The notes under the pieces were generated by a model, which ran no database searches, was not told the origin of the DNA, and was given only the letters and a program-made list of their open reading frames with translations. Of a DNA stretch of 64,000 bases, positions 37,076 to 63,138 are shown one piece after another. The stretch's first letter is position 1, and each line of letters starts with the position of its first letter. The stretch is from Candidatus Syntropharchaeum caldarium (GTDB lineage: Archaea; Halobacteriota; Syntropharchaeia; Syntropharchaeales; Syntropharchaeaceae): positions 39,777-103,776 of the forward strand of contig LYOS01000002.1 of the NCBI GenBank assembly GCA_001766815.1, given 5' to 3'. The translations under genes and the position numbers were made by a program.

Positions 37076-37617
37076 GTCTGCAGGCTCTGGAAGACCTGAT
37101 CAAGTCTTTGTGTACTCAGGACTTCCTCTGATGCTACCACCAGAAGTGCGTTCTTCTCTTTCTTTACATTCCATATCCTGAACCCCTCTGGCGCCAGTAA
37201 TTCAAGGAAGGTGATGATATCGTCGAGAAATTCTTCAGACGGCTCAAATATGACAGATTGCATGAAATCCTCCTCTATCTCGGTCTTTACCAAAATTTCA
37301 AGTCTATTTGGCTGTTCCACCATACTGCGTCCAAAGGCATCCCAGAGGTATCGAAGCAACGTTGGCGCGTATGTTTCATCCTTTATGCGAAATATCGTCT
37401 CTCCATCTTCACTTTCGCTCTCCGCTATATTTGCTATTGTAACAAATGATCCACGAGCTTCTTTATAGGCAAGACGAGCCGCAAAGACTCCTTCTTCGGG
37501 ATCAATCTCCATCTCTATCTTATCTATTTCTACTGGAAAGTCATGTGCTCTGATCTCTGCAACTCTGCGATAGGCATCAGCCCCCTTTGCATCCTGGGAT
37601 CTTACAATAATATCCAT
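37072..37617 (-). CDS. conserved hypothetical protein in the A2-like ATPase operon
   Basis: 181 aa, acidic, soluble. Immediately downstream of the tandem ABC ATPase. Confidence 0.45.
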   Translation of the reverse strand: MDIIVRSQDAKGADAYRRVAEIRAHDFPVEIDKIEMEIDPEEGVFAARLAYKEARGSFVTIANIAESESEDGETIFRIKDETYAPTLLRYLWDAFGRSMVEQPNRLEILVKTEIEEDFMQSVIFEPSEEFLDDIITFLELLAPEGFRIWNVKKEKNALLVVASEEVLSTQRLDQVFQSLQT

Positions 37618-37620
37618 CTT

Positions 37621-39207: not shown

Positions 39208-39224
39208 ACTTAAATCAAGGCTTA

Positions 39225-40004
39225 TTAATTCTTTTCTGTTTTTGCAGACAATGGCATGAGCGTAGAGGTTCTGTAATATAGATCATTTATACGCGCATAT
39301 TTTGCACCCCAGAACTCAACCACCTCTTCAACCGTGCCTGCTGTACCTGTGGCAGTATAGGTAACCTCCATCCCCTCCTCAATCTCTGGTGCTGTTTCGA
39401 TGGCTTTCTCTTCGCCAGACTCGACAAAGACGATTCGTTTTATTTCCTCAGTACTTCGCAGTGGAGTGATATGCCCCCTGATGACACCTGTGATAATACC
39501 AACAACCCTACCTTTTGTGAGTCTCTTCTCTGGTAGGGGGCGAACATACTTGGTATCAACCCCCTCACGTGCCAGATCCTCGTAATCGATTGGACACTGG
39601 CATATCACGATCGATGGCTTATCGAAGAGTTTGAGAAAGTAGATTTGCTTATAAATTATATGTCGTGCGACATTGCCGTGGTGAAATATGAGTAGTTTTG
39701 AACGTTCGATCCGTTCGCGCTCATCCTCTTCCAGTTTGAATTCAACCTTCACAAAATGCTGTTCCGCCTTGATACCTTTTCCCTTACGAAGGACAAGCAC
39801 CGATGCTTTGATCCCATACGCACGCAACCGCTGTGTTATATCACAGACTGGATATGGGATGTGTCGATCCGAAAAGTCCATCGCGATTATCAGTGCATCC
39901 TCGCCATACTCATCCGAGTGCGTGCCTCCACGCGCTATACCGTAACCAAGCCCCCCTCCAAACTTTGCCCTACAGTTGACATAGTGGGCCTTTCTGCCTA
40001 TCAT
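39225..40004 (-). CDS. conserved hypothetical protein in the A2-like ATPase operon
   Basis: 259 aa, soluble, Gly-rich N-terminus (GGGLGYGIARGG). Confidence 0.45.
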   Translation of the reverse strand: MIGRKAHYVNCRAKFGGGLGYGIARGGTHSDEYGEDALIIAMDFSDRHIPYPVCDITQRLRAYGIKASVLVLRKGKGIKAEQHFVKVEFKLEEDERERIERSKLLIFHHGNVARHIIYKQIYFLKLFDKPSIVICQCPIDYEDLAREGVDTKYVRPLPEKRLTKGRVVGIITGVIRGHITPLRSTEEIKRIVFVESGEEKAIETAPEIEEGMEVTYTATGTAGTVEEVVEFWGAKYARINDLYYRTSTLMPLSAKTEKN

Positions 40005-40018
40005 AAATCACACCTTTC

Positions 40019-40879
40019 TTATACAGATGGAACACTCAGCGGAAGTTCAATGATTATATCGTCCTGTGTGCCCCTCTTTATGCTGCCAAACTCACCGAGT
40101 TTACCAAAGTAAAATTCCATCTCTCCGAGTTTCTCTGCATATTCATCATAGGATGCGTTCACTCTGAGACCGCTCATTTTGAGTACCACGTTCACACCAA
40201 ACTTTGATTCAATCTCGGTTTTTATATAGGGATAGGTTGCAGGAACATCAGGTCGAAGGCTTCCGATGATCGAGATTACACTCTCCATAAATGCACCTAT
40301 TATCCGTTTATCATCAGGATCATCGAACATCGTTGGTATCCTTGTAATAGACGGGATGAAAATCAGCTCATCATCAGACTCAAGATCTGCATAGCCTGTC
40401 ACGATCACAGGTACATTAAGCCTTCTGCAGAGTTCCATCTTCTCACGGATACAGTGCTCAAAACATCCAAACATGAAGATCGCCAGATCGTGCTCCTCGA
40501 TCATCATCCGCTCTTCCCTCATCAGAATCGCCTTTCTGCCAACGCCTCTTGCAGGTGCGATTGTGTTCACCTTTGCGCCAGCCTGCCGCAGTGTCTCAAC
40601 CGTGCTGCAGTGTGGAAAGGGTGTGTGATGAAGATTAAATGAGGGGATGATCACCGCAACTTCGATACCATAGAGCGGTACAGTGATAACCCTTCCTGAA
40701 TGCTTACGGAGAGCTGCCCGTTTACGCAGAATGTTCACCGATTCATGATCTATCATCACATCAAATTCTGCAACACCACCCATCTGGTCTATGTTCAGGA
40801 CAAAACCGCCAAGATCCTCTATGAACTCAATTATTTCGTCTGATTCAAACGCATTTCCGATATATTTTAGCGGCATCAT
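40019..40879 (-). CDS. conserved hypothetical protein in the A2-like ATPase operon (Mmp7-sized, unverified)
   Basis: 286 aa, soluble, directly downstream of the second tandem-ABC ATPase. Confidence 0.45.
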   Translation of the reverse strand: MMPLKYIGNAFESDEIIEFIEDLGGFVLNIDQMGGVAEFDVMIDHESVNILRKRAALRKHSGRVITVPLYGIEVAVIIPSFNLHHTPFPHCSTVETLRQAGAKVNTIAPARGVGRKAILMREERMMIEEHDLAIFMFGCFEHCIREKMELCRRLNVPVIVTGYADLESDDELIFIPSITRIPTMFDDPDDKRIIGAFMESVISIIGSLRPDVPATYPYIKTEIESKFGVNVVLKMSGLRVNASYDEYAEKLGEMEFYFGKLGEFGSIKRGTQDDIIIELPLSVPSV

Positions 40880-40897
40880 TTTTATTCCACGCCGTAT

Positions 40898-42679
40898 TCA
40901 GCTCAGATGGAAATACCTGTATGCATCTCCCGTATCCTCAATCTCACCGCCTTTTGAGACAAAGTCGGCGTACTTTCGATTGACAAATTCATTACAGATA
41001 GTCTCAGGATCGCCTGTCATCAGAATTTCGCCACGGTGTATCAGCAGTGCCCGGTGTGCAAGCTCCTTCACCGCATCCAGTTGATGGCTCACGAGGATTA
41101 TTGTGAGGTTGTGCTCCTTGTTGAGGGTTTTTATTGCATTTATACATTTACGCAGCGAGATAGGATCGAGATCTCCGAAAGGCTCATCGAGCAAGAGGAC
41201 CTCTGGCTTCTCCGTCATGTGAAGAGCAAGCGCAACCCGTATCTGCTCACCTGCACTGAGTTCATATGTATAGTGATCCATGAGAGAAAGAGGAAGATCG
41301 AGCGCTTCAAATATGGGTTTCATCCGCTTTTTAGCTTCGTCTGCAGGTATCGTTGGGAATAACTTCCTCAGAATCCCTGGATCAAGTTTCAGCTCCCTGA
41401 GCATGTCTTTCATCTCATCTTCTGGCAGATCTGCAAGTCTATAAAGTACATCCAGCTTCACGTCACTTAGTCCCATTTCTCTCGCCCGTTCGACCACCTC
41501 AGGCAGGAATCGCACGTCCTTTAGCCCAAGTTTCTGCTCAAAGAGGTGCAGCACGATTTCATAGTGCGTGAGCGCAAACTCCTGATGTAACGTTGAGATG
41601 TTAAGACGCGCCTTTACAGCATCATAACCATAGGTACAGATATTTGTCCAGCGCTCTTCACCACCATCGTTGATCCTGTAGGTAACCTCACCAAACTGAG
41701 GAGGTTCAAGTCCTGCAAGCAACCTGATCAGTACTGTCTTTCCAGCAGCACATGGTCCAACGAGTGCAAGTATCTCGCCTTCGTAGATATCGAAGTTGAG
41801 ATTTTTCATCTGGATCGTCTCGATAAACTTTGCACCTGATGTGGTTATCTGGTAACGCTTCCAGAGGTTGGTGAGGCGCATCTTCGGCACTTCTCGTGGT
41901 ATCGATGGCTCAACGGGTTGATCGATCTTTGCAACAAACTTTTTAATGATCTCATCTGGTTTCCCCTCATCAACCACCTTTCCTTCCTCAATCCAGAGCA
42001 CCCTATCAGCGAGAGTTTCGTGTATTTCTGGCATATGAGAGACAAATACAACAGTAACACCAGCATTCTCATTTATTTTTTTTATCGCATCAAGCATCAT
42101 CCCTCGACCAACAGGATCTATCATGGTGGCTGGTTCATCTACAAGAAGAACACGTGGATTTGCTGCGAGCTGTCTCGCAAGCAGAACACACTGCTTCTCA
42201 CCGCCGCTGAGGATATTGTAGTAGTAATACTTCTTATCCAACATGCCAACAATATCAAGAATCTCGGAGGCCCGTTTGAAGAGTCGTTTATAGTCGTTTG
42301 AACCTGTTGTAGGTATCTCTTCAAAACCTGTCTCAAGCTTTCCCAGTTTTCGCATCACATTATTTATCACACTCTCAGGCCATAGTGCAAACGAACGTTG
42401 CAGATGCAGTGCGGTTATCTTCTGGAGTTCAAGCTGTTCATTGGAATTAGAGTCAGGTGTGAGTGTGATACCATCAACCCTTACAGATCCTTCTTTAAAT
42501 GATTCCACGCCCCTTAAAATTCGCAAGAGTGTGGTTTTTCCTGCACTGCTCCTTCCTAATATACCCAGAACTTCACCCTCATCGACTGAGAACGAGACGT
42601 TCTCAAGAGCAGTGTGTTCTTTCTCAATCTTTGAGATCTGATAAGTCTTCGTTAAATTTTCTACTTCGATGATCTTCAT
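40898..42679 (-). CDS. soluble tandem-ABC ATPase, divergent paralogue of the A2-like protein (no zinc ribbon)
   Basis: GRSSAGKTT/LSGGEKQCV/LLVDEPATMID and GPCAAGKTVL/LSAGEQIRV/LLLDEPFGDLD. No Fe-S N-domain, so not ABCE1. No TM domain. Confidence 0.65.
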   Translation of the reverse strand: MKIIEVENLTKTYQISKIEKEHTALENVSFSVDEGEVLGILGRSSAGKTTLLRILRGVESFKEGSVRVDGITLTPDSNSNEQLELQKITALHLQRSFALWPESVINNVMRKLGKLETGFEEIPTTGSNDYKRLFKRASEILDIVGMLDKKYYYYNILSGGEKQCVLLARQLAANPRVLLVDEPATMIDPVGRGMMLDAIKKINENAGVTVVFVSHMPEIHETLADRVLWIEEGKVVDEGKPDEIIKKFVAKIDQPVEPSIPREVPKMRLTNLWKRYQITTSGAKFIETIQMKNLNFDIYEGEILALVGPCAAGKTVLIRLLAGLEPPQFGEVTYRINDGGEERWTNICTYGYDAVKARLNISTLHQEFALTHYEIVLHLFEQKLGLKDVRFLPEVVERAREMGLSDVKLDVLYRLADLPEDEMKDMLRELKLDPGILRKLFPTIPADEAKKRMKPIFEALDLPLSLMDHYTYELSAGEQIRVALALHMTEKPEVLLLDEPFGDLDPISLRKCINAIKTLNKEHNLTIILVSHQLDAVKELAHRALLIHRGEILMTGDPETICNEFVNRKYADFVSKGGEIEDTGDAYRYFHLS

Positions 42680-42870: not shown

Positions 42871-43566
42871 ATGAAAAAACACACACCGCTTCTGCTCATG
42901 ATCGCCGTACTTGCGATCGGTATATTCGCACTCCCCCAGAGCGTTGCGCTTTTCTCAGGTCAGCATTCATGGTATAATCTCACTCCACAGGGTAACGATG
43001 TACCCTGTGAAAAATGTCATGGCGACATCGCTTCAGAGATTGCATCAAGTGGTGCACACAAAAATATCGAGTGCGGCGGATGTCACAGAGCAGATGCAAG
43101 GGTTGGCTATGCCGGGGACTGGGAGGGGGATGTGGATCCAGGACAGGGTGCACACGCGGCATCGACTATTGAGTGTATGATCTGCCATGACAGGGGCACA
43201 AACTTCACACACTCCAATATCGGAAGTGATGAGTGTTCTGACTGTCACACCTCGCCTTTTGTGGCGCCTGGGGCAGGAGGCTTCAATCTGACTGATCCTT
43301 CTGTCTTGCCGTCTGATACCGGCACAAAAGCCGCACACATGCAGTTTGTCCATGACGCGATCAACGAGACGCTCATGGAGGGTGCAAACGAAGCCTGTAT
43401 AGCATGTCATACGCATGTGGGTGTCAACATCACATGGACGAAGAACGTGGTGCTCAACTTTGAAGCATCAGAGAATGAGACTGGAAGCTGGTCGATCCCT
43501 GAGTTTTCAGCAACAGGGGATAATGTGACAGAATCAAACTATACAAACACCTGGGTAAATACTTAA
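42871..43566 (+). CDS. secreted pentaheme c-type cytochrome
   Basis: Signal peptide plus five CxxCH motifs (CEKCH, CGGCH, CMICH, CSDCH, CIACH). 14 nt upstream of the giant cytochrome gene. Confidence 0.85.
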
Positions 43567-43579
43567 AAGGGGGGTTAAA

Positions 43580-46500
43580 ATGAATGAAGGAATGAAAAAG
43601 GTCAAAATCTTTATTCTCGTATTGCTTATGATCGCATCACCGTTTTCGATGCTTACTGCAGGTGCTGCTATCGATGGCTCAAAGCATGACTTCACGTTTG
43701 AGAGTGAACTTACGCCAAATGGTGCGTGTTCCGCCTGCCATGAGTGGCGTACCATGACGTGGGCACGAAACCTGAGTGAAGAGGAGGCTTATTTTAACCA
43801 GACAGAAGATCCAAACTACGTCCATGATCCTACCATAAAATGCTATGACTGTCACAGTGGCACTGCGGCAGACAATGATCCCAGTTACACGCTTTTTATC
43901 AATACAACACTTGGCAGATATATCCCGCAGGACGTTGCCTTTGATGCCAATATGAAGGGAAACGATCTATCCTATGACAGCTCACCCTCTGATGATGAGA
44001 CCGGATACTACGAGTCATCGACATCAGGCCACTACATAAAGACGAACGCAACAGGCCTGACGAATATTGAACCTGGTGATAAGCTCCCATGCACCGACTG
44101 TCATGAACCACACGAGACAGAACCCACAAATGAGGTCTTCATAAAAGGAAGCTCCGAATATCCACTTGGTGGAAAGGTTGTATCAAACTTAAAAGCAAGC
44201 ACAAACACCCGATCTGGTACTGGCACTGGACGTGAGATCTGTGCGGTATGTCATGGATACAGCGATTCAGGCATAGCTGTCAGGTTTGTTGATGTTAATC
44301 CCCTCTATGGCTCGACCGATAGGATCGTTCAGACCCCGTCAACGGTATCCCAGCATGCAGAGAATGATTCAACACCATGCACAGACTGCCACTCACATAG
44401 CACCCCGGCATCGTATTTTGTCGGAATCAGCAGCCACAACACCCACTTAACCGCCGAGTTTGGACCCAAAATATCCTCGTGCACAGGTGCCGATGGCTGT
44501 CACAGTGAGGGAAACTTCAGCCGCTTCAACGACAACCTCACACTCTCAGCGACTCATGCCTGCGATAACTGCCACAGCCCGAATGGAACATACAATGGTG
44601 TCACCCTTGCCAAGGCAAGCTGGGAAGAAGGCGTCTACAACGGCACAGACTTAAAATCAAGCAAGGAGAAGTGGTGTGCAAGCTGTCATGATAAAGAACC
44701 TGCCAGCTCTATGGGGAATGGAAGCGGTATAAACGCCCCGAATATCGTCGGGATGAATCTAAGCGGTAGCTGGCAGAGCCCCGTCGCTATTATAACAAAT
44801 CAGACGGAAAACGTCAGTGATGCAACAAACCTGCTGGATGGTGACGTTGAGACCGGTGCGAGTGTGAGTGGGGCATCCCAGATCGTCTTTGATCTTGGAG
44901 AGAGTACAGAAGTCTCCCATATCAGGCTTTACACATCTGCCAGTTCCACGGTCAAGTGGGAGGTGTACGGGAGCAATGATCTTTCAAACTGGACGAGAAT
45001 ACTCTATGGTCAGGATGTGATCTTTTCCGCTCCTGCATGGCTTACAGGTGAAGATGAGGGATGGGATGAGAGCAGGGTTGACAGGATCATACCTGTGAGA
45101 TACATCAAGCTCTACAAGAGGAGTCCGTGGCCCGTGGGGAGTGGTTCTCAGCGTGAGTTTGAGTATAAAGCAGATATACGGTATGGATACTATACCACCG
45201 GTCACAAGATTGCCTGCACCAACTGCCACAATAGAAGTAGCGCGCATATCGATGGAACCTCACAGACCTACAACACAACCCTTGATAACTATCAGACAGG
45301 TTTCAGGCTGAAATATCTTGAGGTTGAGAATGAAACCGTCCCCTCACTTGAGATACCAAGAGTCGACTGTAACTGGGGTGATTATCCAAAAACCTCAAAC
45401 GACTTTGCACTCTGTTTCTCATGCCACAACAAGTATAACCTCCTCGGGGATGCGAGTGGTACAGGCGACTACCATAAGGATCCACCCCAGACAAACTTCA
45501 GGAACAACACCACAAACGCCCACCTCATCCATCTGCAGGGAAGGGGATACTGTGGAAACAATCCTGACTGGGACTCAGACTGGAACGGCACAGCAGACTC
45601 ACCACAGAGTTGCACCGCGTGTCACAATGTTCATGGCTCTCCTGCTCCTGCGATGACAAGACACGGAGAACTTGTGAGTATCAACGATACCCTTGAGAAG
45701 GCTCCCCTCCTGAACCTGAAGTACATAAACGCAGACGGAGAGCTTGATCATAATCTCTCAGATGCCACCCAGAGTATCGGCGGAAGGACACAGTTCTATG
45801 GTGCAGGACCCGGAAACGTTGCGAAGAATAAGGTGTGTAACATGTGCCACAATGATCAGATTACCTATTATCGCACACCAGTACCTCCCACCGTAACCTG
45901 TGGTAATGGATCAGGAACAGGAGGCTGCCACAGCCCCACCGCATACTCTTCCTCTGCAGCAGGCAGCCACAATACTCATCTAACCGCACCCAGGGGACCA
46001 AACATAACATCCTGCACAGGTGCTGATGGCTGCCACAAAGGCAACCACACCGGTCTCTTCAACGATGGTTTACCGCTATCAACAACCCACAGATGTGATA
46101 ACTGCCACAGCCCGAACGGGACATACGATGGTGTGAATGACTCCACAATCGGAGCAAAACCCAACTGGGAAAATGGAGTGTACAACAATTCCACGACATT
46201 AAAGTCAGGCAAAGAGAAGTGGTGTGCAGGATGCCATGATGACGAACCGGCGTATAGTAAGGCAGAGTACAGCGAGGTCATCGTGGATAACACCGAAGCT
46301 TCTTTTGCTGGTTCATGGAGTACATCCTCTCACTCAACCGATTATGGAAGCAACTACAGATACAATGGTGCAGGTTCAGGCACTGAAACAGCAACGTGGA
46401 CACCTAACCTGCCAGAATCTGGTAATTACTCGGTCTATGCATGGTGGCCCATATATGTTTCAGGAAGAGCAACGAATGCACCGTACACCGTGTACTACAG

Positions 46501-49500
46501 CAGCGGGTCTGAGACGGTAAGGGTGAACCATAAAGCAGGAGGGGGTGGCTGGAACTACATCGGCACATGGAACTTCTCTGCTGGAACATCAGGTTACGTT
46601 GTGCTCAGTGATGATGCCGATGGAATTGTAATGGCTGATGCCATCAGATTTGTTAAAGGCGGGAATGCCACGTACGCACCCAATATCATCGGTGATAATA
46701 CAAGCTATGGGTTCTATGCAACAGGTCATGGTCGAAGCGGTGTTGTGGATTGCCTGTCCTGTCATGATTCAGATAAAACCCATATCGATGGAATTCAGCG
46801 AACGTATGAAGCAAATGAGACAACAGGTGATGCGATCACACCCTACAATAACAGCTACCGTTTAAAGGATCTTGATGGGTTGCCAGCGATGGTAATGCCA
46901 AGAAAAACAACATCCACATTTAATATGCAGGCCTACTGGCGGGATTTTAACCTCTGTTTTGACTGTCACAACAGGTTTGAGGTGCTGGGTGAAACATCAT
47001 CGGATATCAGTAACACCAACTTCTGGAATAATGATTCAAGTATCTCAAACTCACACTGGCTCCATCTCGGGATAGATAGCAAGCACTTTGACTCTGATTA
47101 TGACAGTTCTGCAGACTCACGTGAGAGCTGCATCGCATGCCACAACGTACACGGTTCGCCAACAGGACCGATGATAAGACATGGAGAACTTATAAGCTAT
47201 CCAAGTACAGCGAACAAGGAGCCTGCGCATAATTTCTACTATCTTCTCCCTGGAGATGGTTCAGCCACTGCCAGGTTTACACCCACACTTGCAGGCGGAA
47301 CATATGATATCTATGCATGGTGGAGCTCGCACTCAAACCGTGCGACAAATGCAAAGTATATAATATACCATGATGGTGGTAGCGCTGAGGTAATCGTCAA
47401 TCAGGAGGAGAACGGCTCACAGTGGAACCTCCTTGGCGAGTACAATATTACAACTTCAAACGGCACGGTCGTTCTGACATCAGATGGCGCCAACGAGTAC
47501 ATCATGGCAGACGGAATCCAGTGGAACAGAACAGATGGCGGAGATACTGTCTATGTTGATGAACCTGATGCCACCTATACTGGAAGCTGGACTGTGGAGA
47601 CCTCAAACCCAGACAAATATTACGGAGATAGCACGAGATACTACTATGCACCCATCAGGAATGCGACTGCAAACGTGAATAAGAGTACTGGCGGCACCTT
47701 CTATGTAAGCGGTGTAATCACTGCAAATCATCTCTGTCAGATGTGTCATAGCAACGTCCAGTACAACAGAGACCCGTATACCGGACCAAGAGTTCCATAC
47801 AGTGATGCAACCCCTGATAACATCTCAAACTTTGAGAGTAACACTGTAACATTCACGGCTTTCGTTACCGATGTGGATGAGAACATAGCAAATGTTACCA
47901 TCGATCTCTCAAGTTTTGGTGGTAACGTTAGCCAGAGGATGTACGATGACGGAACCCACGGTGATACCAAGGCAAATGATGGTGTGTATAGCTACCAGTT
48001 CACAGTGCCTGCAGGTGTTGATGATGGTCCAAGGAGTATCACAGTCACCGCAACAGACGATGATGGTAATAGCGGTGAAGGTCTGATCGATCTTACCGTC
48101 TATCAGCCAGGCGCACTGATCATCGATGATGAAGATGCAAGCTTCACCGGAACATGGGGAGAATCCACGGCAGACGAGACGACGTATGGAACAGGATACC
48201 GCTGGCATGCTTCAGGCACCGGGAGCAATACAGCAACGTGGAGTGTCAACATCACAACCGCCGGTAACTACACCGTCTACGCACGATGGGTTACAGGAAG
48301 CAACCGTGCTACAGATGCACCCTACACGATTAACTATGAAGGAGGCAACGAAACAGTAAGGGTTTCACAGCGGATAAAAGGAGGAAAGTGGAACCGTCTT
48401 GGCAACTACTACTTTGACGTCGGCGAGTACTCGGTCGTTCTCACAGATGATGCTGATAACTACGTTATAGCTGATGCGATAAAGCTTGAATCTGAAGCCC
48501 CTCCAGCTTACCACCCATGGCCAATCGCCGACAATCCCGATGCTGAATACAACGGAACAGGATGGTATACTGGAACAGCCGATAGCGGTTATTATGGCTC
48601 AGACTTCTACTACCATGCCTCAGGCACAGGAGAAAATACCGCAACATGGACACTCGCAGTTCCAGAAGCTGGAAAGTACGATGTGTACGCATGGTGGGCA
48701 GACGGCTCAAACCGTGCAACCAATGCACCCTATATGATTAACTACGAAGGAGGCAGTGAAACAGTAAGGGTTTCACAGAAAATAAATGGAGGAAAGTGGA
48801 ACCTGCTTGGGACATATTCATTCAATGCAGGTAACTATTCAATAGTACTCAGTGACGATGCAGATGGATTCATCATTGCCGATGCAGTGAAGTTTGAGCT
48901 TAACCAATCTGTATGGCTCACCCCTTCCTCAATCCAGTGCACAAACCTCACCAACGCTTCACTCCTGATCGATAACAGCACATCAACTGCCAACGCGCTT
49001 GATACCGGAGATGAACAGTATGTGGTCTTTGATCTTGGTGCAAGATACACCGTTCCATCGATCAAGATGTACACTGATGGTAGCGGCAACTACACATGGG
49101 ATGTCTATATGGGGGATAACATATCTGATCCTGCCTGTTGCAACCATTCAAGCTGGGGCACGCCTGTCCTTGAGAACTGGACTCCCTCTACTTCGGGGTG
49201 GAACGAGGTCAACCTGACAACACCCGCCACAGCGAGATACATAAAGCTCATGCGAAACGATACAGGTGATGATCTTGCCGCAGACAGCCTCTATGAGTTC
49301 ATGTTCGACCCACCAACGGCAACGCTCACCTTTGAACTCCACTCATACGCTGATATGCATATCTATGACCCGGAGGATCGCCATCTCGGGATGAACTACA
49401 CGACAGGCGAGATCGAGAACCAAATTCCCGGAGCAGTATATGACTTCGGTGATGTCCAGACTGCTACCCTGCCAAAGCTTGCAGTGGGGGAGTACAGGGT

Positions 49501-50482
49501 GATACTCAAAGGAACGGGGACAGGTGGATATGAACTGACCGTCACGGGCGAGGATGATGATGGTGTACTCACCAGTGAGACCGTTGCTGGAAATATCACA
49601 GCAGGTGAGATCCATGATGCAACCGCAGCGGTTAACACCACAGACATCACAAACATCACGATAGCACTCGAAGATGAGCCAGAGCCAACGATCAATGCAG
49701 ACGGAGTTGATAATGTCACACTCGCTGATCTCTATCCTGATATCGATGAGGTTGATATCGACCCCCTCGATCCTGAGACGATCGATACCACAGGGATGCC
49801 AGATATTGCCATTCACACCGCCTACATGGTCAACGCCTCAGGAGATGGTGAGTACACACTGAGGTTTGAGGATGTGGAGAACGCTGAGCTTATCACTGCA
49901 GTCTATAAGATCAATGAAGAGGGTGAATGGATCGAGCTTCCAGCAGTGATCAATGGATCGAGAGTTGAGGTTACGATGGAAGCAGGTGATCCACCGGTTA
50001 TTTTTGCATATCCAGCACCAGAAACACCGACTACAGATGACACAAACACCGCATCAACAGGTGGTAGTGGTGGTGGGGGCGGCGGAGGTGCAGGCCCGAA
50101 GGACTCAGATGGTGATGGTGTACCCGATCGTCAGGAGCAGCTTGATGGGACAGATCCTCTCAACCCTGATACAGATCATGATGGACTGAACGACTTTGAG
50201 GAGCGTGTGGCAGGAACAGACCCGAACAATCCTGATACCGATGGTGACGGAATAATCGATGGTGAAGATCCGGATCCAGCGATTATGAACTTCACACAGA
50301 AGGTGAAGAAGACCTTCTCTGATATTTCAGATACCATCTTTAGATCGGGTTCAGAGAATGCGCCGGTACCATCTTCAGAGAGCGGTGCAGAAGAGAAGAC
50401 GCCAGGGTTTGGAAGCTTTGCCTGGATCGTAGCAGTTCTTGCTATGGGGTATCTGGTAAGAAGGGAAAAAGTTGAAAAATAG
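43580..50482 (+). CDS. giant (2300 aa) cell-surface multiheme c-type cytochrome with PGF-CTERM anchor
   Basis: Signal peptide. At least 17 canonical CxxCH motifs plus CX5CH/CX8CH variants. Internal duplication of a heme-rich module. Two discoidin-like domains, five or more roughly 100-aa beta-sandwich repeats (…SNRATNAPY…), an Ig/CARDB-like domain, a poly-Gly linker, TSP3-type DxDxDG repeats, and a C-terminal [23 protein letters not shown] signal. Confidence 0.9.
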
Positions 50483-50503: not shown

Positions 50504-51814
50504 TTAAAATATCTGCTGTGGAGGAGTGTTAGCTCCTCCCGGTGTTGTATTCTCAAAGATTGCAAAGTCGTTGCTATCAACGTCTGTATCCATGCCATCG
50601 GGGTATCTGCCTGCAGACGCACCATCTTCTGGTGCCTCAGCATTGTCTGAAACGTCGCCATCATCGAAGTCACCGTATGTAACTCTATCGATCACATTCC
50701 CGCCATTTTTCAGGATGATGGTATCTCCGCCATTGTTGAGTCCGAACGAGAAATCAGTGGACTTGTTCAGCAGCAAGAACCCATTTGCAGGTATTGTTTT
50801 TCCGTTTAGACTTGCAGGTGAAGCAGTGTTATCCTCGATCGTCCAGTCATCAAGCGAAATATCCTCGTCCATCAGGTTGTAGAGTTCGATCCATTCTGAA
50901 TCACCTGGTAAAGGATCTGAAAGAAACTCATTCACAACAACCTTCGGGACAGCATCACCCGCTTCGATCGTAAATGTCCCATCAACCACCCTATGTGTGA
51001 TCTCATCCACACCGTCTGTGAGTGATATAACCGTAAGATCGAGTGGGCTTGTGTCACCAATAGCCCCAACTGCTTCAAAGGTAATCTGAGCAAAGACCAC
51101 ATCGCCTGTAAGGCTCGTTGGGAAGTTGAGGGCTGTGTACTGGATAGATCCAGCGCTGTTGTTGATATCTCTATATAGCGGGAAGTTGAACTCGCCATCG
51201 GCAACATCAAGCACCTGCACGACATCTGGGTCGAAGTTCAGGATGATGTTTGCTCCCAGTCCCTGGTAGAGGTTCTCGATCATGATCGGAACTGTGGTAG
51301 TCTCACCTGCTTCACAGCTTAGATTCTCTATCGATACGATCGTATCAAGCACGGTAAATGTCCCGTCAACCACTGTATGCGTGATCTCATCCATGCCGTC
51401 TGTGAGTGATGTAACCGTAAGATCGAGCGGGCTTGTGTCACCACCCTCACCAACTGCCTCAAAAGTTACCTCTGCAAAGACCACATCGCCTGTAAGGCTC
51501 GTTGGGAAGTTGAATGCCGCGTACTGCACATATCCTGCCTCATTATCGATCTGGCTATAAACCGGGAAGTTGAAATCACTTCCATCTATATCAAGCACCT
51601 GCACGACATCTGGGTCGAAGTTCAGGATGATATTTGCTCCCAGTCCGCCATCAAGATTCTTGATTATGATTGGAACGGTCACACTCTCGCCTTTGCCAGC
51701 AGCCACATCCTCGATCGAGATGACCGTCTCTTCGTTTGCAGCTGCTGTAATTACAAGAGCTGATGCTACAATGAGTATGGCAACCACAGATGCAGCCAGT
51801 TTATGCCTCATCAT
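50504..51814 (-). CDS. secreted protein with two tandem cohesin domains and a C-terminal lamin-tail domain (LTD)
   Basis: Signal peptide. Two roughly 135-aa repeats of cohesin type (…GESVTVPIIIKNLDGGLGANIILNFDPDVVQVLD…FAEVTFEAVGEGGDTSPLDLTV…). C-terminal LTD (EFLSDPLPGDSEWIELYNLMDEDISLDDWTIED…). Confidence 0.65.
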   Translation of the reverse strand: MMRHKLAASVVAILIVASALVITAAANEETVISIEDVAAGKGESVTVPIIIKNLDGGLGANIILNFDPDVVQVLDIDGSDFNFPVYSQIDNEAGYVQYAAFNFPTSLTGDVVFAEVTFEAVGEGGDTSPLDLTVTSLTDGMDEITHTVVDGTFTVLDTIVSIENLSCEAGETTTVPIMIENLYQGLGANIILNFDPDVVQVLDVADGEFNFPLYRDINNSAGSIQYTALNFPTSLTGDVVFAQITFEAVGAIGDTSPLDLTVISLTDGVDEITHRVVDGTFTIEAGDAVPKVVVNEFLSDPLPGDSEWIELYNLMDEDISLDDWTIEDNTASPASLNGKTIPANGFLLLNKSTDFSFGLNNGGDTIILKNGGNVIDRVTYGDFDDGDVSDNAEAPEDGASAGRYPDGMDTDVDSNDFAIFENTTPGGANTPPQQIF

Positions 51815-54012: not shown

Positions 54013-56220
54013 CTATCCTATATAAGCGTTGGCTTCCACTGATCTCCTGCTGCCCCTGAAAATGCGTTCCATTCGCTCATAGAAGTCACGAGCATTCTCA
54101 TCCATCGTTGGCTTGACAATTGACAGTGCCTCTATAAAATGCCTCATCTTCACGCTGGTGGCGTCAAAATCCTCTCTCAGCGCTATAAGTCCTGCTTCTG
54201 TGCATAACGCCTCAATATCAGACCCCAGATAATCTTCTGTTAGATCTACAAGCTCACTGAGATTGACATCATCTGAAAGCGGCATAGAAGCAGTATGTAT
54301 CTGGAATATCTGCCTTCGATCCTCTTTTGATGGTGGCGATACAAAGATGATCCTGTCAAACCTACCAGGTCGCAAGATGGCAGGATCAATTGCATCATAG
54401 GATCGGTTCGTTGCAGCAAGCATAACAACTCCTTCAAGCCCCCTGATTCCATCCATCTCCGTTAGAAGCTGGTTCACAACCCGTTCTGATGTCTGTGACC
54501 CATTCATGCCTCTGGCGGGTGCTATTGCATCAATCTCATCGAAGAATATTATAGAGGGTGCAGCCTGCCTCGCCTTCCTGAATATCTCCCTTATTCCGCG
54601 TTCTGATTCTCCGAGCCACTTTGACAAGATCTCAGGACCATTGACCGCGATGAAGTTTGCAGATGACTCATGTGCGATAGCTTTGGCAATGAGTGTCTTG
54701 CCGCAACCGGGCGGACCGATCAAGAAGATGCCACCTGAAGTTTTAATTCCCATCCGTTCAAGATGCTCGGGGTATTTGATTGGCCACTCAACCATCTCAA
54801 TAAGCTTCTTCTTAACATCTTCAAGACCCCCAACATCCTTCCAACCAACCTTTGGCGTCTCGATAAGAACGTCTTTTATTATCGATGGTTCGAGATCGTT
54901 CAAAGCCATCTTGAAATCTTCGGACGTTACAACCAGTTCTTCAAGCCTCTCTTCAGGTATTGAATCGTCTTCAAGCTCGATCCCTGAGAGGAATCTTCTC
55001 AAAGCACACATCGCAGCTTCTCTGCAGACTGCCTCAAGATCTGCCCCGACATACCCGTGCAGCTTTTCCGAGAGCTTCGCAAGATCAACATCCTTCCCAA
55101 GCGGCATATTGCGGGTATGGACCTGTATGATCTCAAGGCGATCCTCATAATCAGGTACCTTGAGTTCGATCTCCCTATCAAATCTGCCAGGACGCCTCAG
55201 TGCGGGATCGATCGCGTTCAACCTGTTTGTCGCTCCGATCACAACGATCTCACCACGATCCACCAGCCCATCCATGATCGTTAGAAGCTGCGCAACCACC
55301 CTCCGTTCGACTTCTCCCGAAACTTCCTCGCGTTTTGGGGCAATTGAATCTATTTCATCAATAAAAATGATAGAGGGAGCATTTTCACGCGCTTTTTCGA
55401 ATACTTCTCGAAGGTGTTTCTCGGATTCACCGTAATACTTTGATACGATCTCCGGTCCTGCGATATCGAAGAAACTTGCGCCTGCTTCGTTAGCCACAGC
55501 TTTTGCGATCAGGGTCTTGCCACACCCGGGGGGACCATGCAGAATCACGCCTTTTGGGGGTTTCACGCCAAGTCGGTTGAATACCTCAGGGTGCTTGAAC
55601 GGCAGCTCTATCATCTCTCGGACTCGCTGTATCTCAGTTTTCAATCCACCAATATCCTCATAGGTGATTCCAGATAGGTTAAAATCTGTTTCAGCCTCGA
55701 TCGCGTCGGTGAGAAGTTCAACCTCTGTATCTGCTGTCACAACAACCGCGCCATCTGGTTCGAGATCGCGGACAACAAATGGCAGAAACTCACCAAGCGT
55801 TGTGTTACTCATTACAGGGATAATGTCCCCCTTGCAGAGCGCACGTTTCATGATCTGAGCATGTACAAGTTCTGTAACGTTCTTTCCACCAAAGACAACG
55901 TGACTTCCTTCAATTGGGGCAAGTTTGACACGAATTGCATTATTGATTTCCACTCGCCTCAGAACAACCCGCTCTCCGATCGCGACATTTGCATTCTCAC
56001 GAGTGTAACGATCGATCTTCACGATTCCTTTCTCCCAATCCTGTTTACTGAGCCTTGAAAGTCGTGCAACCGTCTTTCGTTTCCCCTCAATCTCGATAAC
56101 ATCCCCATAAGAGACTTTTAGATTGATCACGACATCGGGAGATACAGCTGCTCGCCCTCGCTCAAGATCTCTCGGATACGCCTTTGATACAATAAGATCT
56201 ACTTCTTCCTTCATTTTCAC
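54013..56220 (-). CDS. cdc48: CDC48/VCP-type AAA+ ATPase
   Basis: 735 aa. N-domain plus two AAA modules (GPPGCGKT twice, DEID Walker B, second-region-of-homology Arg fingers). Confidence 0.9.
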
Positions 56221-57296
56221 CCCTCAAACAAACTCTTCTGATAGCTTTTTATTCGTTTAACTGCATCCTCTGCTATCGCCGGATTTATCTCGTACCCAGC
56301 ACCATCCCGTTTCAAATCCCTTGCAGCAACCAGAGTCGTTCCTGAGCCCAGAAAAGGATCAAGCACCGTCTCTCCGATGAAACTGTATGCCTTTATTAGC
56401 CTGTAAGGCAGTTCATAAGGAAATGGTGCAACATGATCCCGTCTATCTCCACTTCCCTCTGGATTTATCAACCACACATCACTCTTCTTAAGCGAGAGCC
56501 AGAACTCTTTATCGAGCTTTGATGCTTCCTTTGCTTCAGGAGTGAGGTGTGCGTACTTTCTATAACCTGCTGGAGATGGCTTCTCAAACTCAAGGATAAA
56601 CTCATGGGCATGATTCAAAAGGATACCACCAGGATAGGGGTACGTCCCAAAATGCGCCCTTACCGAGTTTGTCTTATGCCAGATAATATCCCGTTTGAAG
56701 ATGAATCCGATCCTCTCACAGAGGTCGATCGTTCTTCCCACAAGATTTAAAGTTTTAAAACTCCCCTCTGTCCTTATCGGCAGGTTCATGATATTGATAA
56801 ATGCCTTTCTTCCGGGCTGTAAAACCCTGAAGACCTCCTCCCAGACATTGCTGATCTCATCAAACCATTCATCCAGGTCATGAATATCGCCAAGATCGCT
56901 CTCTATAGGCTCTCTGGAGTACATCTTTGCATTAAAATACGGTGGAGAGGTTACCATTAAGTGTATCGAGTTATCCTCTATCTCAGACATCACCTGTGCA
57001 TTCCTGACATAGATACGTTGACTGGTCCCGTTGACCTCAATGACGCTGGTTTCGCCGAGCACACTGCCTGTTTCATTCCTGCTAAACCCCTCGACTTCAA
57101 TTTTCTGTAACGCATCAAGTGTGAATCGATATTGTCCACTGGCTGATCTGTACGTCTCTATGGCATTTCGCTTAACAAGCTCATGGAGGTTACTCACCGA
57201 TATTCCAAGATATTTTGCAGCTTCTCCTGATGATAGGTAACTTCTATTCCTATAATCTGTTATCATCGCTTTATGACTATTTTTATCTCTTTCCAC
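56217..57296 (-). CDS. DNA methyltransferase (beta-class N4-C/N6-A, SPPY...DPFLGSGTT order) with N-terminal HTH DNA-binding domain
   Basis: Motif IV SPPY precedes motif I FLDPFLGSGTT. N-terminal MerR/excisionase-like HTH (YLSSGEAAKYLGISVSNLHELV). 4-nt overlap with cdc48. The start may instead be the internal Met at 57266. Confidence 0.75.
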   Translation of the reverse strand: MERDKNSHKAMITDYRNRSYLSSGEAAKYLGISVSNLHELVKRNAIETYRSASGQYRFTLDALQKIEVEGFSRNETGSVLGETSVIEVNGTSQRIYVRNAQVMSEIEDNSIHLMVTSPPYFNAKMYSREPIESDLGDIHDLDEWFDEISNVWEEVFRVLQPGRKAFINIMNLPIRTEGSFKTLNLVGRTIDLCERIGFIFKRDIIWHKTNSVRAHFGTYPYPGGILLNHAHEFILEFEKPSPAGYRKYAHLTPEAKEASKLDKEFWLSLKKSDVWLINPEGSGDRRDHVAPFPYELPYRLIKAYSFIGETVLDPFLGSGTTLVAARDLKRDGAGYEINPAIAEDAVKRIKSYQKSLFEG

Positions 57297-60125: not shown

Positions 60126-60205
60126 GTTTAATCCCATAGATTCTTATCAGTATTCGAGGATAATTATATTAAGATAACCGAAGTATATTGATGTAGAATC
60201 ATTTA

Positions 60206-60967
60206 ATGAATGATGGAGGGGTTAGCATAACACTGGAACGGGTAGCTACCGGAATTATGGGACTGGACGAGTTGATTGGTGGCGGTTTTCCCGCAAAGAC
60301 CGTAAATCTTATTTCAGCACCTTCAGGTAGTGGAAAGACACTCTTTGCCATGCAGTATATATACAATGGTGCGAAGGATCATGGAGATGTTGGAATCTTT
60401 ATCACGACAGAGGAAGGCTATGGCAGCATACAGCGGGCAATGAGTGCATTTGGAATGGATATCACCAGATACGAAAACGAAGGTAAACTTTTCATCTTCG
60501 ATATCGCAGAACTGAGGAAAGAGATTGGTATCTCTAAATCCGAAAGACAGATAATGACGTTTGAGGCATTGCAGGATGCACTGGCGGGGATATTGAAGTA
60601 CACCCGAGCAAAAAGACTCGCTCTTGACTCACTTGTGGGAATAGGACTTGCGTACCATTCTAACACCAGTCTGCGTGAAGATATCTTCAGGTTCAGCTGG
60701 TATCTTCGCGATATGAATCTAACATCACTTTTGACGACCGAGTCTGTTGAAGGCGTAGCAGGACTTACAAGATATGGGGTCGAACAGTTCATCTCAGACT
60801 CACTCATTGTTCTCGGGCTTGAGGATAACAACGGCGAACTCGTGCGAACGATCAGGGTGAGAAAGATGCGTTTTACAGCGCATGATCGTGGAAAACACCC
60901 GTTCCTCTTCACTTCAAAGGGTATAGAGGTCTCACCCGGAGAGAAGATTTTTTTAGTTCATGGATGA
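60206..60967 (+). CDS. KaiC/RecA-superfamily ATPase (single KaiC-like domain)
   Basis: GLDELIGGGFP, Walker A SAPSGSGKT, Walker B-like LALDSL, KaiC-type core. 253 aa. Confidence 0.7.
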   Translation: MNDGGVSITLERVATGIMGLDELIGGGFPAKTVNLISAPSGSGKTLFAMQYIYNGAKDHGDVGIFITTEEGYGSIQRAMSAFGMDITRYENEGKLFIFDIAELRKEIGISKSERQIMTFEALQDALAGILKYTRAKRLALDSLVGIGLAYHSNTSLREDIFRFSWYLRDMNLTSLLTTESVEGVAGLTRYGVEQFISDSLIVLGLEDNNGELVRTIRVRKMRFTAHDRGKHPFLFTSKGIEVSPGEKIFLVHG

Positions 60968-62501
60968 AGCCGTAGCAATATCGTCTCGATTGCTGGAAGG
61001 AGTGATAAGAGAGATTGGTCTGATCATCGGTTCAGACCCGATCAGAATGTTGATCTCGCGCCTATCCAGGGATGAAGAGGTTCTGAAATCACTTGAAGTT
61101 GGAGATAATTTCAGTGTGTGTTTTGCTGGTCTCAATAACTCAGATATCGATTCCGGGCAAACATTGAATGCACTGAAAATACTCATGGATCACCTCGTAG
61201 ATTTTTCAGCGAATATTTTTGGTGATGAAGCTTCAGAAAGGATGATGGCTCGTGCACTGGAACCCTTTGATCAGGAGATTGCACGAATGTGCGAACTCAA
61301 TCTTGCAGCGTTTCTCCCTCGCATTGTTGATACTGAAATACACGAGAAGAAGCGGGGTGTGGCTGCAATAATTGACAAAAACAGGATTGAACAGGTTCTT
61401 GTGATATTTGAAGATATTTTATCTGCTTATCTGGAAGATGCGAGTGCCATCGGCTTGATTGAGCTCTACAGACGAAAGATAAGTTCACTACCACCCATCA
61501 ACTCCATATCTTCACCAATAGTGATTACAGATGATGGTAGTGTAAGCCTCTCCAGACTTAATAATGCTGATCTGGATGTGAGACTGCTGGTTGATGAACT
61601 CGCATCGATATCCGACTCATTTATCGATACCGCATCTTTTCTAATCGGAAAAAAAGAGGCACTAAGTCGCGCAGAAAACAGTATAAACCCGGTCCTTGCA
61701 AGATTTCAGCCTTTAACCGATGAACTCGGGATAACAGATAAAATTCTAAAAGGTAATCTTGCAAGACGAATCTCAACAGGTGTGAACGGTTTTGATGAGA
61801 TTATTGAAGGAGGTTTCCCACGATCAGGCTCGATTCTTCTGCAGGGACCACCGGGCATTGAGAAAGACGCTTTCATCAACGCATTCCTGAGATCAGGACT
61901 TTCAAAGGGTTATGCTGCGATGGCGGTTCTTTCAAAGTACACGCCAGCAGACCTCAGGATTCAGATGCGAGATACTGGAATTGATTTGATCAAGTACGAG
62001 GATGAAAATGTATTTGGCATGGTTGACTGGAACGCATGGCGCGGGGAAAACGTGAACGGGGTTGAGGAGGGAGATCGGAGTTCGGTTCTTCGATCATCAA
62101 GGGATCTTTCGTATCTGAGTATAGCTATAAACAAGGTACTTGCCAATCTTGATGAAGTTCCGACACGGCTCGCAGTCATTGATATACTCTCACCTGCCAT
62201 AAATGACTTTGATTTTGAGACGGTTTACGATTTTACCCAATCACTCAGGATAAAATTCAAGAAAGAGGATGTTACAGCTTTATTTTTGATAGATAATGAG
62301 ATGCATGATGGTAAATCACTATCTGCGATTCAGGAGATCTTCGATGGAGTGATCGAGATCGAGCGTCAACGGGTAGATGATCAGATCATAAGAAAGATCG
62401 GTGTGATACACATGGATAGAACATACTTTGATTCAAAATATAAGACGCTTAAACTCTCAAGGGAAGGTATTAAAGTTGTATCAGAGGAGGAATCGTTATG
62501 A
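60960..62501 (+). CDS. two-domain protein: novel N-terminal about 270-aa domain plus C-terminal KaiC-like domain with degenerate P-loop (pseudo-ATPase)
   Basis: GFDEIIEGGFPRSGSILLQGPPGIEKDAF: the P-loop is GIEKD instead of GxGKT/S. Overlaps the upstream KaiC-like gene by 8 nt. Confidence 0.55.
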   Translation: MDEAVAISSRLLEGVIREIGLIIGSDPIRMLISRLSRDEEVLKSLEVGDNFSVCFAGLNNSDIDSGQTLNALKILMDHLVDFSANIFGDEASERMMARALEPFDQEIARMCELNLAAFLPRIVDTEIHEKKRGVAAIIDKNRIEQVLVIFEDILSAYLEDASAIGLIELYRRKISSLPPINSISSPIVITDDGSVSLSRLNNADLDVRLLVDELASISDSFIDTASFLIGKKEALSRAENSINPVLARFQPLTDELGITDKILKGNLARRISTGVNGFDEIIEGGFPRSGSILLQGPPGIEKDAFINAFLRSGLSKGYAAMAVLSKYTPADLRIQMRDTGIDLIKYEDENVFGMVDWNAWRGENVNGVEEGDRSSVLRSSRDLSYLSIAINKVLANLDEVPTRLAVIDILSPAINDFDFETVYDFTQSLRIKFKKEDVTALFLIDNEMHDGKSLSAIQEIFDGVIEIERQRVDDQIIRKIGVIHMDRTYFDSKYKTLKLSREGIKVVSEEESL

Positions 62502-62806
62502 ACGGAATTGAGATGTCTTTTGACCTTTTAAAGACAGTGGCTGCGTTTGCCCTCTTTGTCTATACGATCAGGATGGCGGGTAGTGTCAGGCGTGGAACAA
62601 CCGCATGGGTCTTCTTCGCAATGATGGGTGCGTTCTTTGTATTTGCAAGGATATACGACTGGATAGGACTTATCGCACCGATCGTGGCAGGGACGGTCCC
62701 AGCATGGGAGATGATGTTCACTCTCTCAGAGGAACTGAGCAATCTATTTGCGATCTTCTGCGGGATGATGGGCGTGAAAGAGCTGTATGATGTTATGGTG
62801 AGGTGA
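62498..62806 (+). CDS. small membrane protein (3 TM), paralogue 1
   Basis: 102 aa. Overlaps the upstream gene by 4 nt. Topology and C-terminal …G(M/F)KELxxxxV motif similar to the next ORF. Confidence 0.4.
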   Translation: MNGIEMSFDLLKTVAAFALFVYTIRMAGSVRRGTTAWVFFAMMGAFFVFARIYDWIGLIAPIVAGTVPAWEMMFTLSEELSNLFAIFCGMMGVKELYDVMVR

Positions 62807-63138
62807 GCGTGATGAACGAGATTGTGACATTTGTGGTGCTACAGGAAGTTATGAATGGTCTCACCTTTGTTACGGTGATGCTTGCAGGAAGTTTGGCTCT
62901 CATGGCTGCGATGCTTGCAACGATCACATACAGCGTGCTCAAAGGTGGAACGATCGCATGGATGTATCTGATGCTTGGGTTCTGGATGTTTCTTGTATCA
63001 TTCATTTTGAGGCTCTTTGGGGATGCATGGGTAACTATGGGAATTGCAACCGATATCTCTTACCTCTTTGGGCTTGCAATGATGATCGCGGGCTTCAAAG
63101 AGCTATCAGGTATCTACGTTGATTACCAGCAGACTTAA
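62803..63138 (+). CDS. small membrane protein (3-4 TM), paralogue 2
   Basis: 111 aa. Overlaps paralogue 1 by 4 nt. Shared pattern with the previous ORF: TIAW…FxxxxxLxxxxGxxAxxxxxLFxxxxMIAGFKEL. Confidence 0.4.
   Translation: MSVMNEIVTFVVLQEVMNGLTFVTVMLAGSLALMAAMLATITYSVLKGGTIAWMYLMLGFWMFLVSFILRLFGDAWVTMGIATDISYLFGLAMMIAGFKELSGIYVDYQQT

Follow-up and report, generated by a model that had tools for sequence, protein, structure and literature searches.

KaiC, PH0186 and ArlH form nucleotide-dependent hexameric rings that work as slow switches rather than as motors. In archaea, KaiC-like ATPases and inactivated KaiC-like (iKaiC) proteins have been proposed as hubs of signal transduction whose inputs and outputs can be exchanged (Makarova, Galperin and Koonin 2017, summarised in Galperin et al. 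2018, PMC5847659). Here we describe a four-gene locus, G1 to G4, at positions 60206-63138 of a 64,000-nucleotide stretch (the window) of the genome of Candidatus Syntropharchaeum caldarium (assembly GCA_001766815.1, contig LYOS01000002.1, positions 39,777 to 103,776 of the forward strand), in which an active and an inactivated KaiC-like protein are encoded with two small membrane proteins. We put a probability of about 0.55 on the reading that this operon is a membrane-coupled variant of the archaeal KaiC/iKaiC signalling module.

As these hubs are known from the summary description, they share two features with the locus, namely an active KaiC-like ATPase encoded with a KaiC-like protein that has lost catalysis, and input and output domains that vary by lineage (REC, TPR, Zn-ribbon and weak winged helix-turn-helix (wHTH)-like domains). 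The locus differs from that description in having a duplicated N-terminal module of ~110 amino acids, a MEDS match below threshold and two membrane proteins of three segments each. Among solved structures, PH0186 (2zts), PH0284 (2dr3) and SSO2452 (2w0m) have the fold and size of G1 and the fold of the C-terminal domain of G2; unlike the system described here, they have intact P-loops and no described inactive or membrane partners, and their functions are largely unknown. In cyanobacterial KaiC, two stacked homologous domains of unequal activity make up a working switch, and G1 aligns best with the CI ATPase half of that protein, with Walker A, the Glu-Glu pair, Walker B and the finger all kept; here, in contrast, the two KaiC-type domains are on separate polypeptides, one of them is fully inactivated, and the KaiC equivalog cut-offs are not reached. 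Nucleotide binding or autophosphorylation, rather than motor activity, is how the KaiC-like regulators ArlH/FlaH and Haloferax volcanii CirA work (PMC8978795; PMC10983859), but these proteins lack iKaiC or small membrane partners, and the window locus lacks an arl gene neighbourhood. Finally, Rad55-Rad57 and other Rad51-paralogue heteromers are likewise RecA-superfamily pairs in which one ATPase site is degenerate or dispensable, whereas G1 and G2 fall in the KaiC rather than the RadA/Rad51 branch, have no DNA-binding domain and are linked to membrane proteins. A literature search returned nothing on KaiC in Syntrophoarchaeum.

The open reading frame (ORF) listing bears out four consecutive + strand ORFs, which an earlier model-generated annotation of the window (the first-pass annotation) had described as a translationally coupled module. 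G1 (60206-60967, 253 amino acids) encodes a single-domain KaiC-like ATPase predicted from its motifs to be catalytically competent, and G2 (60960-62501, 513 amino acids) encodes a duplicated N-terminal module followed by an inactivated KaiC-like domain. G3 (62498-62806, 102 amino acids) and G4 (62812-63138, 108 amino acids from its ATG) encode membrane proteins of about three transmembrane segments, with an RRGTTAW loop and GVKEL tail in the former and a KGGTIAW loop and GFKEL tail in the latter. Both the 8-nucleotide overlap between G1 and G2 (ATGGATGA) and the 4-nucleotide overlap between G2 and G3 (ATGA) are real, and the 8-nucleotide overlap is specific to this genome, a 3-nucleotide gap being found instead at orthologous loci. 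The 4-nucleotide overlap also claimed for G3 and G4 holds if GTG 62803 is the start of G4 (ORF 62803-63138, + strand, 111 amino acids). However, ATG 62812 is more likely to be the start because GGTGAGGTGA precedes it at Shine-Dalgarno distance, orthologues begin with M(S/N)EIVT, and the NCBI entry for G4 ("membrane protein", Ca. Syntrophoarchaeum caldarius) has 108 amino acids; with this start, G3 and G4 lie 5 nucleotides apart and do not overlap. G3 has a strong Shine-Dalgarno sequence, GAGGAGG, within the 3' end of G2. With overlapping or 5-nucleotide-spaced genes and Shine-Dalgarno sites inside upstream genes, G1-G2-G3-G4 is one operon, and an AT-rich, TATA-like element (ATAATTATATTAAG, 60160..60173, + strand), located 33-46 nucleotides upstream of the G1 start and read from the sequence, is a candidate archaeal promoter. 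Ratios of nonsynonymous to synonymous substitution rates (dN/dS) against two orthologous loci, compared at dS up to ~1.1, were 0.09-0.14 for G1, ~0.19 for G2, 0.05-0.22 for G3 and 0.10-0.16 for G4; all four ORFs are thus under purifying selection, as expected of real genes.

G1 matched the Pfam KaiC family (PF06745) with 211.9 bits (1.1e-62), above the gathering threshold of 26.6 bits. Its best sequence match in the PDB was KaiC (whole-sequence E 4e-63), with 146.8 bits for the CI half and 68.9 bits for the CII half, and the next class of PDB matches was archaeal PH0186 (2.9e-49). A competent ATPase of the KaiC/RecA type is defined by a Walker A motif ([AG]xxxxGK[ST]), a Glu-Glu pair after strand 2, a Walker B Asp and a Lys/Arg finger acting in trans; G1 carries all four (APSGSGKT, TTEE, LALDS and RKMR), aligned with the corresponding motifs of KaiC-CI, and its P-loop SAPSGSGKT (residues 37-45; 60314..60340, + strand) is canonical, as first described. 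Since the K[ST] of Walker A, the Glu-Glu pair, the Walker B Asp and the K-M-R finger are retained in G1 and in five orthologues from other lineages, we predict that G1 is catalytically competent. In several G1 orthologues, at the related loci numbered L002 (2217-2942), L009, L013, L015 and L016, Ala replaces Gly before the Walker A Lys (GGAKT, GSAKS), unlike the canonical GSGKT of the window.

KaiC models were also the top NCBIfam matches of G1. Together with the PDB ranking, in which KaiC comes first and CI scores above CII, this might be taken to mean that G1 is a true circadian or hourglass KaiC and the locus a timing device, a reading to which we give next to no credence. G1 has one domain rather than two, and it scored 185.1 and 148 bits against the circadian KaiC models NF006799 and TIGR02655, whose cut-offs are 408 and 546 bits and which describe double-domain proteins of ~500 amino acids. 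Pfam searches of ~50 larger window ORFs, a set that excludes several ORFs below ~160 amino acids and the rest of the genome, found neither KaiA nor KaiB. It also counts against a timing device that Ca. Syntrophoarchaeum is an anaerobic, sediment-dwelling alkane oxidiser.

A second reading would make the module a helper of an archaellum, pilus or secretion machine in the manner of ArlH/FlaH. In its favour, ArlH is a single-domain KaiC-like regulator associated with a membrane machine (PMC8978795) and has the same fold class as G1. This too is highly improbable, because the NCBIfam ArlH/FlaH models NF052589 and NF004723 gave only 36.8 and 42.5 bits for G1 and 18.4 and 32.9 bits for G2, against cut-offs of 215 and 194 bits, and G1 is much nearer to KaiC-CI and PH0186 than to ArlH. 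Neither the Pfam scans of the same ~50 window ORFs nor the related loci contained ArlI/ArlJ, pilin, PilB/C or Che genes or anything like a secretion gene, and an archaellum, pilus or chemotaxis context was rejected on the window scans. The first-pass annotation had suggested secretion, motility or signalling by analogy to ArlH/FlaH; motility and secretion find no support here, and the accessory domains of relatives point to signalling or regulation. In addition, G1 scored 26.3 and 22.1 bits against the RadB and RadA equivalog models (TIGR02237, TIGR02236; cut-offs 172 and 361 bits). Because it falls below all of these cut-offs, we assign G1 to the KaiC-like ATPase family rather than to circadian KaiC, ArlH or RadB. 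In PADLOC-DB, G1 had only a generic match of its P-loop region to mad8 (28.3 bits, residues 34-141) and G2-G4 had none, and a defence-system reading of the locus was rejected on this result.

The C-terminal part of G2 (residues 271-510; 61770..62489, + strand) has the same fold as G1 with the catalytic motifs lost. It matched Pfam KaiC with 102.4 bits (3.2e-29; threshold 26.6 bits). A match of residues 355-467 to DUF7504 (PF24336; 36.4 bits, cut-off 27) overlaps the KaiC-domain match and adds no functional information, and the match to MEDS (PF14417; 14.5 bits, E 0.032) falls under the gathering threshold of 29.8 bits. An AlphaFold2 (AF2) model of G2 (mean confidence, pLDDT, 86) matched PH0284, PH0186 and KaiC-CI in Foldseek with E ~1e-14 and target-normalised template-modelling (TM) scores of 0.81-0.87 (PH0284, E 1.4e-14, TM 0.84-0.87), and the full model retrieved KaiC-domain matches only. 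In its Walker A, GPPGIEKD (residues 296-303; 61845..61868, + strand), the Gly is replaced by Glu and the Thr by Asp, the Glu pair has become S-KYT and the KMR finger HMD, so that only the Walker A Lys and an Asp at the Walker B position remain.

The degenerate Walker A had been noticed at first pass, with the proviso that resequencing might reveal an intact motif. Orthologues of G2 from independent assemblies read GPPGMEKD and GPPGREKD, with the Gly-to-Glu and Thr-to-Asp changes kept, and all 17 aligned G2-type domains lack a canonical Walker A and Glu pair, most of them showing the pattern G-x-E-[KR]-[DENK], while Walker B and the finger vary. Since the loss is found in orthologues and in distant relatives alike, a sequencing error was rejected as its cause. 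The pairing of an active with an inactive KaiC-like protein is thereby upheld by motif analysis over ~20 homologues. The conserved Glu beside the Lys or Arg of the P-loop suggests a phosphate site occupied by the protein itself, with no nucleotide bound. Its KaiC fold and lost motifs make G2 an iKaiC protein in the sense of Makarova 2017 and Galperin 2018 (PMC5847659), where the summary description asks for a KaiC fold, disrupted ATPase motifs and a signalling context; the last is provided by relatives of G2 through their REC, TPR and Zn-ribbon domains.

Residues 1-270 of G2 had been described as a novel N-terminal domain. They matched no family in Pfam or NCBIfam, in keeping with that description, but they are better described as a tandem duplication of one module of ~110 amino acids, with copy 1 at residues ~7-108 (60978..61283, + strand) and copy 2 at residues ~149-254 (61404..61721, + strand), as delimited by hhalign. 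The two copies aligned to each other with a probability of 96.9% (E 1.4e-10), and each is predicted from the AF2 model to fold as helix-helix-beta hairpin-helix-helix. Modelled alone (pLDDT 85), the N-terminal region had no structural neighbour in the PDB (best Foldseek E 0.41, TM <0.21). An exhaustive phmmer search of 1.84 billion representatives recovered 24 clusters in total, and in nearly all of those scanned the region lies directly N-terminal to a KaiC-like domain. Several of these proteins end in TPR repeats and Zn-ribbons; short-form relatives consist of copy 2 alone, then the iKaiC domain, then helix-hairpin-helix (HhH), TPR or Zn-ribbon domains, and some Thermoplasmatota relatives have a single copy of the module. 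The module defines a wider protein family in Thermoplasmatota and Halobacteriota.

HhH and Zn-ribbon domains on short-form relatives of G2 could also be accommodated if G1 and G2 were a RadB/Rad55-57-like pair of recombinase paralogues in DNA repair, with G3 and G4 as incidental neighbours. Public annotations label relatives "RAD55 family ATPase", and at one related locus (L012) a G1 orthologue adjoins an Lhr helicase. We nevertheless consider this very unlikely: scores with the RadB and RadA models reached 19-26 bits where 172-361 are required, no DNA-binding domain is present in Syntrophoarchaeum G2, "RAD55" is a generic name assigned by annotation pipelines, and G3 and G4 move with G1 and G2 across genomic contexts and are translationally linked to them.

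That co-movement is apparent from the distribution of the locus. The first-pass annotation had staked its module on conservation of the gene order, and the same order of the four genes is seen again in three further contigs of Syntrophoarchaeum type, one of them in a different neighbourhood. A JGI metagenome contig (L001; 82% identity in G2) has the same neighbours as the window, and a second metagenome contig (L011), which is cut within G2, has the same downstream neighbours. In the third, L002 from GCA_030596445.1 (67% identity in G2), ilvD and L18Ae give way to NucS on the upstream side and to a convergently oriented class-I LysRS on the downstream side; the same order amid different flanks indicates that the four-gene module moves as a unit. 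Identities to L001 and L002, respectively, were 92 and 76% for G1, 82 and 67% for G2, 94 and 87% for G3, and 93 and 87% for G4.

Beyond these contigs, the conserved core is the pair of G1 and G2 and not all four genes. The G1 subfamily comprises >400 clusters at 90% identity (E <1e-40), mostly from Thermoplasmatota, and at six Thermoplasmatota loci (L009, L010, L013, L014, L015 and L016) a G1 orthologue of 49-63% identity lies immediately upstream of a protein of the G2 family, which at L016 is a protein of >2000 amino acids that starts with a G2-type iKaiC domain. In a Halobacteriota metagenome-assembled genome (MAG55, from a tar biofilm; L004), a REC response regulator (2.6e-17) is all that stands between the G1 and G2 orthologues. 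The presence of REC, weak wHTH, TPR, Zn-ribbon and HhH domains in relatives argues for signalling or regulation and fits the KaiC/iKaiC hub proposal.

The related loci have further features of their own. At L010 (25-6016) one G1 orthologue is followed by two different tandem G2-family paralogues, the first of 841 amino acids with the N-module, two iKaiC domains and a TP_0179 coiled coil, and the second of 938 amino acids with the N-module, one iKaiC domain, TPR repeats and Zn-ribbons. The REC regulator of L004 (4953-5609, - strand) has a coiled-coil tail and lies on the strand opposite to the flanking G1 and G2 orthologues, and at L003 the G2 orthologue adjoins a hybrid sensor kinase of 1492 amino acids. 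In Thermoplasmatota, two small soluble proteins (~92-161 amino acids) are encoded directly upstream of the G1 orthologue, overlapping it or abutting (L013:3998-4650, L014:4452-4996, L015:4248-5008 and L009:4484-5268). The pairs at L013 and L014 are 73-84% identical to each other, and at L009 this position holds a weak MarR-like wHTH protein that stays under the Pfam cut-off. The small soluble proteins matched no Pfam family, and a relationship to the N-module of G2 was rejected, with hhalign probabilities no higher than 8%. These small proteins probably belong to the G1/G2 module as additional components.

G3 and G4 have the character of dedicated membrane partners of this pair. Hydropathy analysis agrees with the three transmembrane segments first assigned to each (about three hydrophobic segments), and in G3 the middle segment is long enough that it might count as two. 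The two proteins are colinear and have in common the motifs (R/K)GGT.AW, AW..M and G(V/F)KEL, the last of which corrects the G(M/F)KEL initially reported. They were also introduced as paralogues. BLASTP aligned them with 28% identity over 72 amino acids, hhalign gave E values of 5e-5 to 4.5e-4 with probabilities of 33-67%, and the alignment scored 26-31, well over the 12.0 +/- 2.2 (maximum 19.8) of 100 column shuffles. We regard this as moderate evidence, which makes paralogy of the two sequences probable and does not prove it. The positive charges of G3 concentrate on the RRGTT loop and the KEL tail, which by the positive-inside rule suggests an N-out, C-in orientation that would place the conserved motifs in the cytoplasm.

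With identities of 84-94% for G3 (L001, L002, L011) and 82-93% for G4 in orthologues, these are the most conserved and slowest-evolving genes of the operon. Neither protein matched a Pfam or NCBIfam family at E values up to 0.1, semiSWEET/MtN3, SMR and CrcB included, and neither had a match in PADLOC. A word-seeded profile search of 5.8 billion proteins returned only four near-identical clusters, a scan of metagenome contigs added one more locus, and tblastn with G3 and G4 against all fetched loci found none beyond the Syntrophoarchaeum-like contigs. G3 and G4 are thus an addition found only in Syntrophoarchaeum, and they were never seen apart from G1 and G2, in agreement with the idea that they are dedicated partners.

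Could G3 and G4 instead be the effector, a minimal channel or transporter formed by a semiSWEET-like dimerising pair and gated or regulated by the G1/G2 complex? This is unlikely, although several features point towards it: small membrane proteins encoded by adjacent paralogous genes, polar and acidic residues in the third hydrophobic segment (SEELSN in G3, ATDISY in G4), and the fact that no other genes of the operon are as conserved. In PDB profile searches G3 had no match, and G4 had a weak match to a three-helix unit of the major facilitator superfamily transporter VGLUT2 (E 0.004, 19-21 bits), the sole external match for either protein. That match is at the level expected of hydrophobic composition, and composition bias is its most likely source. 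There is no meaningful Pfam, NCBIfam or PDB-sequence match to transporter families, L011 has Gly at the position of one of the two G3 glutamates, and to our knowledge there is no precedent for a KaiC-like protein gating a transporter.

On the preferred reading of the operon as a membrane-coupled KaiC/iKaiC module, G1 would be the engine, an active ring that slowly hydrolyses ATP and/or autophosphorylates, and G2 would be its dedicated non-catalytic partner, the dead KaiC domain stacking on the G1 ring in the manner of CI and CII in KaiC or else co-assembling with it. The duplicated N-modules of G2 may provide an interaction or sensing surface specific to the family. G3 and G4 would most likely form a parallel heterodimer in the membrane, with the conserved cytoplasmic loop (R/K)GGT.AW and the tail G.KEL docking the G1/G2 complex. 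A membrane cue could then control the nucleotide or phosphorylation state of G1, or the complex could act on membrane proteins. In Thermoplasmatota, the role of G3 and G4 may be taken by TPR, Zn-ribbon, HhH or coiled-coil extensions of the G2 homologue, or by the small soluble proteins, the weak wHTH-like protein or a response regulator.

Several observations weigh against this reading. In the Halobacteriota metagenome-assembled genome GCA_034190245.1 the G1 and G2 orthologues are on different contigs, which indicates that their adjacency is not obligatory, and four loci (L003, L005, L006 and L007/8) have a G2 homologue with no adjacent G1. The HhH and Zn-ribbon fusions in relatives could mean a role in nucleic-acid transactions rather than in signalling. 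Outside one lineage no homologue of G3 or G4 could be detected, no fold can be assigned to them, and they could serve as sensor, anchor or effector. Finally, whereas the gene structure, the presence or absence of catalytic motifs, the folds, the conservation, the synteny and the distribution are established directly, it is from these that we infer the physical contacts of G1 with G2 and of G2 with G3 and G4, as well as the oligomeric state, the topology, the signal and its direction.

Elsewhere in the window, on the + strand at 42871-50482, a gene for a multihaem cytochrome c of 231 amino acids is followed by one for a giant protein of 2300 amino acids with multihaem c-type motifs (Cytochrome_C7, c3, paired CXXCH), four Golvesin_C domains (2.5e-127), a bacterial TSP3 repeat and an F5/8-type-C-like domain; this giant cytochrome is a plausible extracellular electron-transfer conduit in a syntrophic alkane oxidiser. 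It is adjoined by a gene (50504-51814, - strand) for a protein of 436 amino acids with cohesin and lamin-tail domains, which may be a cell-surface scaffold. A cluster on the - strand (37072-42679) is linked to maturation of methyl/alkyl-coenzyme M reductase and encodes DUF2113 (37072-37617), two double-ABC ATPases resembling component A2 (37621-39207 and 40898-42679), a second MCR_C/DUF2098 protein (39225-40004) and McrC (40019-40879). The protein encoded at 11409-13613 (+ strand) is an amino-acid permease that ends in two fused universal stress protein (Usp) domains. An ORF of 359 amino acids (56217-57296, - strand), which overlaps the start of the CDC48 gene by 4 nucleotides, has an N-terminal helix-turn-helix-like segment and, when its translation is read by eye, the motifs SPPYF and DPFLGSGTT typical of N4/N6 DNA methyltransferases.

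Archaeal KaiC-like ATPases are numerous and have been proposed as the main native signalling hubs, and almost none has a known input, output or partner. The pair of an active KaiC and a dead KaiC with a duplicated module is a conserved and testable one that spans Thermoplasmatota and Syntrophoarchaeum-like Halobacteriota, and the two very conserved membrane proteins of one lineage make it a concrete system for the connection of a KaiC hub to the membrane. Neither the N-module nor G3 and G4 belong to a known family or solved fold. These findings extend current ideas on KaiC hubs and do not overturn them, in a host of biogeochemical interest as an anaerobic oxidiser of short-chain alkanes. A bolder proposal, which we regard as distinctly unlikely, is that G3 and G4 constitute a new kind of unit for signalling or conductance in the membrane, connected directly to a KaiC double ring that is split into active and inactive proteins, with the N-module of G2 as the coupler. 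If true, this would be the first membrane-coupled KaiC system, and in a butane oxidiser that lives syntrophically and depends on extracellular electron transfer it could inform cellular regulation of the redox state or energisation of the membrane.

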